Translations under genes and position numbers: made by a program
Notes under the pieces: model-generated
Databases searched by the model: none
The model's input: the letters and a program-made list of their open reading frames with translations, nothing else
What the model was told of the DNA's origin: nothing
Source: a virus
Lineage: Duplodnaviria > Heunggongvirae > Uroviricota > Caudoviricetes
Length of the DNA: 16,017 nucleotides
Virus record (IMG/VR): IMGVR_UViG_2622736468_000001
Strand: one strand, 5' to 3'
In this document: positions 11,571 through 11,744 of the stretch, one piece after another
Numbering within the stretch: the stretch's first letter is position 1
Layout of the letters: every line of letters begins with the position of its first letter

Positions 11571-11744
11571 ATGACCGACCGTTCACCAACAGAGGTAATT
11601 CACGGGATTATTGAAGAACAGGAGGAGCGCGAGTTAATCCTCATGATTGAAGAGCAGAGAGAACGCCAGCGCAAACAGGAGTCCACGCAGCCGGACAGCG
11701 TGACCACTGAAAATTATGCGCGTGTTGTGGCTGGTGTGCCGTGA
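11571..11744 (+). CDS. Hypothetical small acidic protein (57 aa, MTDRSPTEVIHGIIEEQEERELILMIEEQRERQRKQESTQPDSVTTENYARVVAGVP)
   Basis: Translated by hand (under the track cut-off); AGGGGGA upstream of the ATG; its first codons lie in the right copy of the 30-bp direct repeat, and a truncated 20-codon copy of the same start sits at 8554-8616. Confidence 0.45.
   Translation: MTDRSPTEVIHGIIEEQEERELILMIEEQRERQRKQESTQPDSVTTENYARVVAGVP
11573..11602. repeat. 30-bp direct repeat, right copy
   Basis: Identical to 8566-8595. Confidence 0.85.

Follow-up and report, generated by a model that had tools for sequence, protein, structure and literature searches.

ORF57, a 57-codon reading frame next to a restriction-modification (R-M) cassette, appears from sequence comparison to be the truncated N-terminal part of a satellite protein of ~105 aa that belongs to the PHROG 1561 family. 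We consider it probable that ORF57 is a gene relic rather than a dedicated small protein; by itself, the stump is most likely without a function, and it would have served the cassette as a landing site, not as a partner. PHROG 1561 is an already known, uncharacterised family, and ORF57 is the remaining, broken front half of one of its genes. The frame lies in the window (the whole 16,017-nt stretch of DNA that was analysed), whose gene content marks it as a PICI-like phage satellite of Escherichia coli. Here, we describe the frame and its parent family, the insert that duplicated its 5' end, the DNA sites around it, and the alternative readings. The coordinates of the features are collected in Table 1.

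Table 1. Features in and around ORF57, in window coordinates.
Feature	Position	Strand	Basis or content
Stub ORF, 20 codons, MNQQTDRSPTEVIQATLNTS*	8554..8616	+	proQ/FinO-like codons 1-5 (8554-8568) + ORF57 codons 3-12
Left copy of exact 30-bp direct repeat	8565..8594	+	GACCGACCGTTCACCAACAGAGGTAATTCA
Insert, 2978 bp	8595..11572	+	not in empty-site contigs L004-L008
Putative C5 cytosine DNA methyltransferase, type II R-M	8765..9904	+	PF00145 3.7e-53; PADLOC MTase_II 3e-164
Putative type II restriction endonuclease	9840..10916	+	PADLOC REase_II 7e-124, full length
IS630-family insertion sequence end, fragment	10936..11062	-	~78% identity to ends in many E. coli genomes
Native upstream region of small gene	11286..11570	+	common to satellites with other cargo
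Near-perfect palindrome, 33 nt	11495..11527	.	16-nt arms, 94% complementary, centre GTTACTTAAAGTAAC
ORF57	11571..11744	+	PHROG-1561-family 5' stump; acidic N-terminal helix and ~12 first core residues
Right copy of exact 30-bp direct repeat	11573..11602	+	inside ORF57, codons 1-11
Two imperfect tandem units, 36 nt (12 codons) each	11607..11678	+	IEEQEERELILM, IEEQRERQRKQE
5-nt deletion (TGAGG) relative to intact alleles	11731..11732	+	alignment and frame translations
Foreign DNA, 105 nt, in place of 39 nt of core	11759..11863	+	starts with GTAACTTTAAGTAAC; in-frame stops
Phage KilA-N domain gene fragment, codons ~51-72	11806..11870	+	...EKNHESVVFTE.GVHGGTYGG; includes hairpin 11814-11837
Surviving 3' end of the old gene	11864..11932	+	..RRRQEQRQNAAPYQWHKPE; beyond the reach of ORF57 translation; cf. 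P0033
Lambdoid antiterminator Q gene	12581..12979	+	PF06530 1.6e-49; conserved neighbour 3' of the small gene across this satellite subfamily

The reading frame and its parent family

The frame runs from the ATG at 11571 to a TGA at 11744 and encodes the 57-aa sequence MTDRSPTEVIHGIIEEQEERELILMIEEQRERQRKQESTQPDSVTTENYARVVAGVP. A first-pass annotation of the same DNA had described a small protein rich in Glu and Arg, helical, and preceded by a ribosome-binding site. The frame and composition bear out the first of these points: Glu makes up 19% and Arg 10.5% of the residues, Gln is also frequent, and 13 acidic and 7 basic residues give a net charge of -6 and a pI of 4.6. The charged stretch is a mix of Glu, Arg and Gln with no carboxylate array. 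The ribosome-binding site is likewise present, as a Shine-Dalgarno-like AGGGGGA at 11561-11567, 3 nt 5' of the ATG, which relatives keep as ACAGGGGG or ACAGGAGG. AlphaFold2 predicts a single long helix over residues 6-38 (pLDDT ~88-97) followed by a low-confidence tail, and the helical label is therefore supported, as a prediction. Because the conserved Shine-Dalgarno sequence and the native upstream region are both retained, the stump may well be translated. At most, it would then act as a small upstream ORF of the transcript that continues to Q. Its product would then be one charged helix of ~33 residues with a floppy tail, bearing no invariant residue of the family. Within the frame, the two tandem units match over 27 nt with 74% identity at a spacing of 36; homologues have one (P0025, P0029), two or four (P0004) of these 12-residue units, a variation that stays in frame.

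The PHROG 1561 profile matches ORF57 at 1.4e-6, aligning residues 31-56 with profile positions 17-42 of 93, and matches intact alleles at 3e-30 (P0009) and 2e-25 (P0030). Intact alleles of 104-108 aa are known; one of them, P0031, shares 53 of its first 55 residues with ORF57 and then runs into the core. PHROG 1561 proteins as a whole measure 93-108 aa and are recorded as “hypothetical / prophage protein” in Escherichia and Shigella satellites (e.g., P0031, P0039, P0064). The intact small gene encodes a lineage-specific acidic N-terminal helix and a conserved basic helical hairpin that makes up the C-terminal ~60 residues. This core is strongly basic (pI ~10.6), follows the pattern ..AEVMRRDGIxLNxxDxxxIRxRVLxML..YxWKxPERLRR, and holds 11 invariant residues (R58, R59, G61, L64, N65, D68, I72, R73, R75, V76 and P102). 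ORF57 ends at residue 57 and retains none of the 11. It shares descent, the upstream region, the Shine-Dalgarno sequence and the place upstream of Q with the family but lacks the entire basic hairpin core, and its sequence thus marks it as a truncated descendant and not a functional member. In the other branch of the family, which consists of 93-aa proteins, the N-terminus is different and not acidic, so the acidic helix is not what the family conserves for its function.

Two lesions separate ORF57 from an intact allele. The loss of TGAGG shifts the frame onto the stop at 11742-11744, and further 3' a foreign segment replaces part of the core. In alignment with the intact locus L014, window positions 11544-11758 correspond to 7974-8193 and positions 11864-11932 to 8233-8301. 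All frames 3' of ORF57 contain stops. Part of the foreign DNA is a 65-nt KilA-N fragment with 95% identity to HK620 hkbK and others; in the near-identical locus L001 (E. coli JNEC-KY203), PGAP annotates ORF57 as a hypothetical protein and places a KilA-N pseudogene and then Q after it. The core has also been lost elsewhere, in L034 through a 135-nt core deletion and a PemK-toxin insert in the same gene, and in L030 through a different truncation. The three kinds of truncation each leave the ~40 first codons open, and the stump alleles end differently, at 53, 57, 59, 63 or 68 aa, with unrelated tails.

Homologues of the family come only from Escherichia and Shigella, with a conserved N-terminus and C-termini that diverge through frameshifts and deletions. 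In satellites, the gene occupies the late zone, where it lies either upstream of Q or last, after capsid, HDPD and Nu1-like genes; in L009-L013 it is directly 3' of a Nu1/Rpp-like gene. Of 5426 complete E. coli genomes, ~750 contain sequence that matches the core, and in every satellite examined it lies at the 3' end. A tblastn search of 50,697 phage records with ORF57 and the 90-aa form P0009 returned no match, and it is satellites rather than phages that appear to carry the family. The family forms only 32 clusters at 50% identity among 1.84 billion representatives, and no homologue was found outside these satellites.

Database searches place the protein in no other family. With E values up to 10, Pfam gave only DUF7312 for ORF57 (0.069), NCBIfam and PADLOC gave no match to it, and across Pfam, NCBIfam, PADLOC and PHROGs the sole family match was the unannotated PHROG 1561. 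No PDB chain was matched by sequence or by the family profile, and Foldseek with the full-length model found nothing below E = 0.6 in PDB and BFVD. The predicted full-length fold consists of three helices, which is too simple for the model to give a functional placement. One candidate with a similar setting is Rpp, which redirects phage packaging in PICIs (Fillol-Salom et al. 2019, PMC6739421; Murialdo and Feiss 2022, PMC9026076). Like the family protein, Rpp is small and has its gene towards the 3' end of E. coli PICIs, but Rpps are winged-helix proteins of 135-153 aa with solved structures; we reject this identity on the lack of a PDB sequence or profile match, the other size and the other, three-helix predicted fold. 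The core of the intact gene is under strong purifying selection: over 34 core codons, the intact alleles L014 and L024 differ by seven synonymous and no nonsynonymous changes. For the intact protein, binding to nucleic acid by way of the basic hairpin is probable, with a role in packaging or in regulation of the late zone, a reading that we hold at low confidence. The ~105-aa family with this hairpin core might merit experiments more than the stump does.

The satellite and its restriction-modification insert

Gram-negative PICIs and helper-embedded satellites are laid out in four zones: integration, Bro, replication and late (Tommasini, Mageeney, Williams, bioRxiv 10.1101/2022.07.18.500453). 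The window has the first three in order together with a dynamic late zone. Its genes run from an integrase and an HTH gene through a Rha/Icd zone, in which a C4 immunity RNA is encoded, DUF4222, a DUF927 primase, an iteron origin and SSB to cargo, the small gene and Q; the zones were assigned from the annotation of L001, Pfam, the C4 RNA and the iteron origin. The full virion gene set is absent. The window differs from those PICIs in that no lambda-type cosN was found in it with up to one mismatch and no rpp-like or capsid genes were recognised in it. Its late zone consists of the R-M cassette, gene debris and the Q antiterminator. In relatives, the slot between SSB and the small gene holds ProQ/PerC cargo or is empty.

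The 5' end of the small gene had been reported as duplicated around the cassette, and the duplication is exact: positions 8565-8594 and 11573-11602 are 100% identical and flank an insert of 2978 bp. Five metagenome contigs (L004-L008) carry both flanks at 99.5-100% identity, with the 30-mer in single copy and without the insert, whose G+C content is 36-44% vs 47-60% in the flanks. By gene content, the cassette makes up a complete type II R-M system; close relatives of the endonuclease (matches H73 and H74) are annotated by PGAP as “NmeDI-related”. Elsewhere, the same cassette is found in the leuX island, without ORF57. The insert also holds the IS630 fragment, ~220 nt at 11063-11285 between that fragment and the native upstream region, and the upstream region itself; no recombinase gene is encoded within it. 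ORF57 is downstream of the R-M system at a distance of 655 nt.

The left junction probably records an older event. In L002, L003 and L014, ATGAACCAGCAGACC opens the ProQ gene that comes immediately after SSB; in L004 and in the window, ATGAACCAGCAGACC is joined to GACCGTTCACC... via GACC microhomology. In the window, the stub ORF produced at this junction reads into the insert after its ORF57-derived codons. We propose that this cargo slot next to SSB would first have lost ProQ/PerC by a deletion that joined proQ codons 1-5 to codon 3 of the ORF and gave the empty-site form seen in L004 (the order of the events is inferred). The 2978-bp segment would then have recombined in at the 5' end of the ORF, leaving the exact 30-bp direct repeat and bringing with it the type II R-M unit, the IS630 scrap, the sequence at 11063-11285 and, together with the original start of the ORF, its native upstream region. 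At its right end, the insert consists of ~290 nt that belong upstream of the target gene itself; unequal recombination of two related satellites is therefore at least as good an explanation as de novo insertion.

R-M insertion with long target duplication has been described by Furuta, Abe and Kobayashi (NAR 2010, PMC2853133) for inserts of <20 kb that contain R and M, with a direct target duplication “longer than 30 bp”, an empty site with a single copy in a related genome, and no other mobile element accounting for the insertion. The insert described here is similar in carrying M and R within 2978 bp, in its direct repeat and in the empty site of L004-L008. It differs in that the repeat is exactly 30 bp, at the cut-off, and in that the insert contains the IS630 scrap and the native ~290 nt upstream of the target. 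With its empty-site controls, it is a clean case of a type II R-M unit entering a PICI-like cargo slot with a 30-bp duplication. A second, similar event is the PemK toxin in the same gene of a sister element: in L034, a PemK/MazF-like module sits at the 3' end of the gene with a duplication of 22-34 bp.

The first-pass annotation had called ORF57 the disrupted or target locus of the cassette. It was the target. The disruption, however, is not the work of the cassette: the downstream copy, ORF57, retains the native start, Shine-Dalgarno sequence and upstream region, which means that the cassette did not break the gene, and the real break consists of the 5-nt deletion and the foreign segment in the 3' half.

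DNA sites around the small gene

The native upstream region holds paired TGCGCA motifs, 12-nt mini-repeats, GATC sites and the Shine-Dalgarno-like sequence. The frame had also been said to sit between two GTTAC/GTAAC sites, and both were located, at 11504-11518 and 11759-11773. Site 1, GTTACTTAAAGTAAC, is the centre of the 33-nt palindrome, which folds at -11.1 kcal/mol (z = -3.9). Site 2, GTAACTTTAAGTAAC, is 93% complementary to site 1 but is a direct GTAAC repeat and no palindrome. Over the whole window, GTAAC/GTTAC is not enriched (32 observed vs ~31 expected), and 11 of the 32 occurrences fall in 11234-12204. The palindrome is altered in L002, L014 and L017, and L003, L022-L028 and L031 lack it or have other sequence in its place; at the position of site 2, L002 has GTATCTTTAAGCGAC and L003 has GTAACTTAAAGTCAC. 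The two sites are rejected as a conserved operator or recombination pair, as relatives do not keep them.

A hairpin with a 10-bp stem lies at 11814-11837, and the surrounding 66 nt fold at -20.2 kcal/mol (z = -2.2). It had been described as terminator-like. The hairpin is real, but it is a piece of the KilA-N coding fragment, and a terminator scan did not call it because its U run sits in the 3' arm of the stem and leaves no tail; on these grounds, we reject it as an intrinsic terminator. With Rfam at E values up to 1, no structured RNA was found near ORF57, the sole match in the window being the C4 RNA at 4105-4192.

It is quite improbable that the DNA rather than the protein carries the signal here, i.e., that the palindrome, the GTAAC sites and the motif AG[CT]AACCT are recombination or operator sites of a cargo hotspot. 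The motif does occur only three times in the window, at 8595 (base 1 of the insert), 11513 (the right half of site 1) and 11768 (in site 2, 9 nt inside the second breakpoint). The breakpoint of the 105-nt foreign segment coincides exactly with the start of site 2, the PemK-toxin insert in the same gene of the sister satellite is flanked by a 34-nt duplication, and the palindrome is partly maintained in L014, with changes in both arms. Against these observations, site 2 differs in L002 and L003 despite the common foreign segment, many relatives lack the palindrome or have it replaced, the insert has no recombinase, and three occurrences of a degenerate 8-mer are weak statistics.

Selection on the stump and rival readings

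Among 5426 complete E. coli genomes, 29 carry the stump with identical lesions; in 3 of these the R-M cassette lies alongside it, and in ~26 it does not. Across all alleles, the N-terminal 37 codons show 12 synonymous vs 16 nonsynonymous site changes (P = 0.003), and synonymous change in codons 1-37 is above neutral expectation. Among the stump alleles that share the ORF57 truncation, the same codons show four synonymous and nine nonsynonymous changes, counted by hand from the per-site list and the sequences; these are too few to tell from neutrality (P = 0.22), and we do not invoke selection on the stump after truncation. The constraint on codons 1-37 is largely inherited from intact ancestors.

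The relic reading has to be weighed against the idea that the stump is a functional small helical protein, such as a coiled-coil regulator or a decoy kept after the core was lost, which we regard as rather unlikely. Such a protein would account for the conserved start codon and Shine-Dalgarno sequence, the confidently predicted long helix, the overall constraint on codons 1-37, the N-terminal ORF left open by independent truncations, the in-frame changes of repeat copy number (1, 2, 4), and the numbers in complete genomes, where acidic-type stump alleles outnumber intact acidic-type alleles by 29 vs 2 (the latter counted at a coverage of 80% or more). However, the constraint derives mostly from intact ancestors, and the counts of 4 vs 9 within the single lineage fit neutrality; the C-terminal tails, which end at 53-68 aa, are unrelated, the N-terminus of the 93-aa branch is non-acidic, and the stump has no homologue beyond these satellites. 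Such a regulator or decoy would bind a partner of the full-length protein, from helper phages or from satellites that compete with this one.

The first-pass annotation had instead suggested a DNA mimic with anti-restriction activity, or a regulator, and homology and distribution largely refute this. That ORF57 is such a mimic, or a controller of the adjacent R-M cassette, is highly improbable, even with its overall acidity, its predicted helix and a type II R-M system 655 nt upstream of it. The family is older than the cassette and is found without it, the cassette accompanies the stump in only 3 of 29 genomes, relatives have ProQ/PerC cargo or nothing in the slot, and ORF57 is a fragment of a larger protein with no match in Pfam, NCBIfam or PADLOC and no helix-turn-helix. 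A DNA mimic of the Ocr or ArdA type is expected to be very strongly negative, to contain few basic residues and to present its charge on a rigid fold patterned like the phosphates of B-DNA; T7 Ocr and ArdA have a net charge of roughly -25 to -30. ORF57 resembles them in being small, acidic and on a mobile element, but it has no sequence or profile similarity to them, its net charge is far smaller, 7 of its 57 residues are basic within a mixed Glu/Arg/Gln stretch, and its distribution is independent of R-M systems. Structure prediction, which had been proposed as a check for a DNA-mimic charge pattern, gave the single predicted helix and low-confidence tail at a net charge of only -6. The identity of an R-M controller (C) protein, which would be a helix-turn-helix protein whose gene accompanies the R-M system and usually precedes R, was rejected separately: no HTH was found, ORF57 is downstream of R, and the two do not co-distribute. 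Because the evidence indicates a gene remnant, ORF57 is of no importance as an anti-restriction candidate. More generally, a short acidic ORF beside a defence cassette can be a truncation artefact, one that alignment to intact alleles exposes.

The late-zone small gene could be a site where addiction and defence cargo preferentially lands, with the N-terminal part kept for expression or titration; we think this unlikely. The landing-pad reading draws on three events in one gene, namely the R-M unit at the 5' end, the PemK/MazF-like module at the 3' end in L034, and KilA-N in the middle. The retained promoter, Shine-Dalgarno sequence and helix ORF could drive or tune the downstream cargo and Q. 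Another reading is that the acidic helix, freed from the core, could titrate a partner of the intact protein.

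ORF57 as the remnant of a larger gene

ORF57, the 57-codon acidic ORF upstream of the antiterminator gene Q, is an ordinary remnant of a gene. It sits in the late zone of a PICI-like satellite; this zone is decaying, and the satellite has acquired a type II R-M system. The first-pass annotation had described an ORF with a ribosome-binding site, GTTAC/GTAAC sites on either side and a duplicated 5' end. The ORF, its charge (13 acidic and 7 basic residues, net −6, pI 4.6), the Shine-Dalgarno-like sequence, the repeat sites, and the duplication as an exact 30-nt direct repeat are all confirmed; therefore, ORF57 and every sequence feature described are real.

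Coordinates of features in the window
Feature	Position (strand)	Details
C4 antisense RNA	4105–4192 (+)	Rfam RF01695, 77.7 bits, E = 4e-14; inside Icd-like gene (2903–4417)
Origin-like region, iteron type	7469–7657	3' of DUF927 primase gene; three direct GTTGCCTCAAAT iterons, AT-rich spacer, four inverted CTGAGGCRAC iterons
30-nt direct repeat, left copy	8565–8594
R-M unit proper	8632–10948	low G+C
C5 cytosine methyltransferase gene	8765–9904	PF00145; MTase_II 3e-164
Endonuclease gene	9840–10916	REase_II 7e-124; "NmeDI-related" annotation in close relatives
IS630-family element end	10936–11062 (−)	~78% identical fragment, directly 3' of endonuclease gene
Mini-repeats, 12-nt period	11228–11433	AAGTCAGTTACA ×2, GAAAACTGCGCA ×2, CGATCACAAAAC ×2.3, AAAAAATGCGCA ×2
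Site 1	11504–11518	GTTACTTAAAGTAAC; centre of 33-nt near-perfect palindrome
Shine-Dalgarno-like sequence		AGGGGGA, 3 nt 5' of ORF57 ATG
ORF57	11571–11744 (+)	MTDRSPTEVIHGIIEEQEERELILMIEEQRERQRKQESTQPDSVTTENYARVVAGVP
30-nt direct repeat, right copy	11573–11602	from G of start codon, past its A and T
Foreign segment	11759–11863	105 nt in place of 39 nt of core; in-frame stops
Site 2	11759–11773	GTAACTTTAAGTAAC; near-complement of site 1
KilA-N piece	11806–11870	65 nt, 95% identical to KilA-N gene codons ~51–72, e.g., HK620 hkbK
Hairpin	11814–11837	KilA-N coding fragment (EKNHESVVF)
Original 3' end	11864–11932	..RRRQEQRQNAAPYQWHKPE, still readable
roi (anti-repressor) gene fragment	11985–12066 (−)	95% identical to phage roi
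Diverged direct repeats	12012–12074 / 12137–12199	63 nt, 76% identity
Diverged direct repeats	12389–12415 / 12534–12560	27 nt, 78% identity
Second origin-like copy	13255–13473	3' of Q; ~95% identical, two iterons fewer
HTH_Tnp_1 ORF	13534–13935 (+)	insertion-sequence gene
IS66-family transposase gene	14082–15620 (−)

Direct homologues of ORF57 (30 clusters) are confined to E. coli. They have the first ~40 residues in common, unrelated C-termini of 41–98 aa, and one, two or four copies of a 12-residue repeat, IEEQEERELILM. Two longer forms match PHROG 1561, a family of unknown function, at 3e-30 and 2e-25, ORF57 at only 1.4e-6. A search with a longer form as the query yields 903 clusters; these include intact proteins of 104–108 aa that share the ORF57 N-terminus, and a large group of 93-aa proteins that differ at the N-terminus but agree in the C-terminal ~60 residues. 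One of the intact proteins, P0031, has 53 of its first 55 residues in common with ORF57. The C-terminal core of the family is strongly basic (pI 10.6) and contains all of the invariant residues (R58, R59, G61, L64, N65, D68, I72, R73, R75, V76 and P102). Between the intact genes of loci L014 and L024, the core has seven synonymous and no nonsynonymous differences in 34 codons, a pattern indicative of strong purifying selection. AlphaFold2 predicts three helices for the intact protein, with a pLDDT of ~90 for the core hairpin. In E. coli contigs L009–L013, the 93-aa branch (~8001–8282) is the last satellite gene, directly 3' of a Nu1-like gene, and these satellites encode a Phage_cap_E capsid protein, an HDPD decoration protein and a Nu1/Rpp-like protein. 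Hence, the intact family may act in packaging or late functions.

Nucleotide alignment of the window with the intact genes of L014 and L017 shows that ORF57 is the stump of such a gene. Relative to the intact genes, 5 nt (TGAGG) are absent between 11731 and 11732, shifting the frame into a TGA at 11742–11744. Downstream, part of the core has been replaced by a foreign segment whose first bases are exactly site 2, i.e., the second GTAAC site. A hairpin is indeed present where a terminator-like structure had been proposed, but it consists of KilA-N coding sequence and is not called in a terminator scan, since its U run makes up the stem's 3' arm.

Acquisition of the R-M genes

Together, the methyltransferase and endonuclease genes make up a complete type II R-M system. 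The R-M unit is also found, at 94.6% identity, in at least 21 other complete E. coli genomes, one of them a strain that also holds satellite L003. Elsewhere, the unit lies beside a transposase remnant; in RM10042, the genome examined, this is the leuX/nanM island.

The view of ORF57 as the target locus was right: five metagenome contigs that are 99.5–100% identical to both flanks have a single copy of the 30-mer and no 2978-bp insert. Immediately 5' of the 30-mer, these contigs and the left copy in the window have ATGAACCAGCAGACC, which is the proQ start of cargo-bearing relatives, fused to codon 3 of the ORF via GACC microhomology. The insert ends on the right with ~290 nt (11286–11572) that precede the small gene in relatives too and are native to it. 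The simplest history of the locus has two steps. Deletion of ProQ/PerC cargo would have created the proQ'-'ORF fusion, i.e., the empty-site form; unequal recombination with a related element carrying the R-M genes, the upstream region and the ORF would then have left the 30-bp repeat. Repeat-mediated deletion could regenerate the empty form. The outcome resembles R-M "insertion with long target duplication" (PMC2853133), with 30 bp being exactly the cut-off in that paper.

A sister satellite (L034, 6001–7100; also L035) has an 826-bp insert with a PemK/MazF-like toxin in the same small gene; on either side of the insert, 34 nt of the gene's 3' end are present as a direct repeat (6151–6184 and 6977–7010; first 22 nt exact). 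This is a second addiction-type cargo entering the small gene with a long duplication.

Possible functions of ORF57 and its flanking sites

The proposal that ORF57 is an anti-restriction DNA mimic or a regulator is unsupported, since the ORF encodes a fragment of a bigger protein, its charge is moderate and mixed, and it resembles neither known DNA mimics nor R-M controller proteins. The cassette is beside the stump in only 3 of 29 stump-carrying genomes, with the other 26 having no adjacent cassette, meaning that the gene family is independent of the cassette. For ORF57, AlphaFold2 gives a single long helix (residues 6–38, pLDDT ~88–97) followed by a low-confidence tail. For both ORF57 and the intact protein, models and sequences match nothing of known function. 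A minor alternative is that the flanking repeats are recombination sites or operators. The degenerate 8-mer AG[CT]AACCT has only three occurrences, at 8595 (where the insert begins), 11513 and 11768, which is suggestive of breakpoint reuse, but the coincidence is statistically weak. The site 1 palindrome is part of the native upstream region; many relatives have an altered version of it, another sequence in its place or a deletion there, and site 2 differs among relatives with the same foreign segment.

ORF57 is most likely a relic, and it is improbable that it retains a role as a small helical peptide. Across all alleles, the N-terminal 37 codons are under moderate constraint (pairwise pN/pS ~0.15–0.45); their site changes, 12 synonymous and 16 nonsynonymous, depart from neutrality (P = 0.003). 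Much of this variation also occurs in intact alleles and hence is not assignable to the period after truncation. Alleles with the particular truncation of ORF57 have four synonymous and nine nonsynonymous changes, counted by hand from the per-site list and allele sequences (P = 0.22, compatible with neutrality). Two further alleles lack the core: L034 (GCA_012671005.1), through an internal 135-nt core deletion together with the PemK-toxin insert, and L030, through another truncation. Among 5426 complete E. coli genomes, 29 have the stump architecture, two have an intact acidic-type allele (≥80% coverage), and ~750 have sequence matching the intact-allele query, mostly its core-encoding half.

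The mini-repeats 5' of ORF57, and paired TGCGCA motifs 116 nt apart that are conserved in relatives, may be regulator-binding sites.

The satellite setting

A chromosomal island of E. coli JNEC-KY203 matches the region at 99.9% identity; in this island, PGAP lists, in order, an integrase, HTH regulator, Rha-family regulator, Icd-like protein, DUF4222, DUF927 primase-type protein, hypothetical protein, SSB, cytosine methyltransferase, hypothetical protein, ORF57 (WP_001625851.1, hypothetical), KilA-N pseudogene fragment and antiterminator Q. This layout matches the four zones (integration, Bro, replication and late) of Gram-negative PICIs and helper-embedded satellites. The C4 RNA, recognized by its Rfam match, is a P1/P4-type immunity RNA in the Bro zone. 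The module that begins with the 138-aa hypothetical gene, upstream of SSB, and extends to Q lies between the two origin-like copies. The backbone is shared by relatives in other E. coli strains, but their slot from SSB to the small ORF holds ProQ/FinO and PerC genes.

Two insertion-sequence genes lie on the 3' side of the satellite, and the JNEC-KY203 island has frameshifts in the integrase and Rha genes as well as an IS421 insertion; the satellite is therefore decaying. Between the stump and Q, the roi fragment and both pairs of diverged direct repeats, each with a small G+C hairpin, are more late-zone debris or repeated elements.
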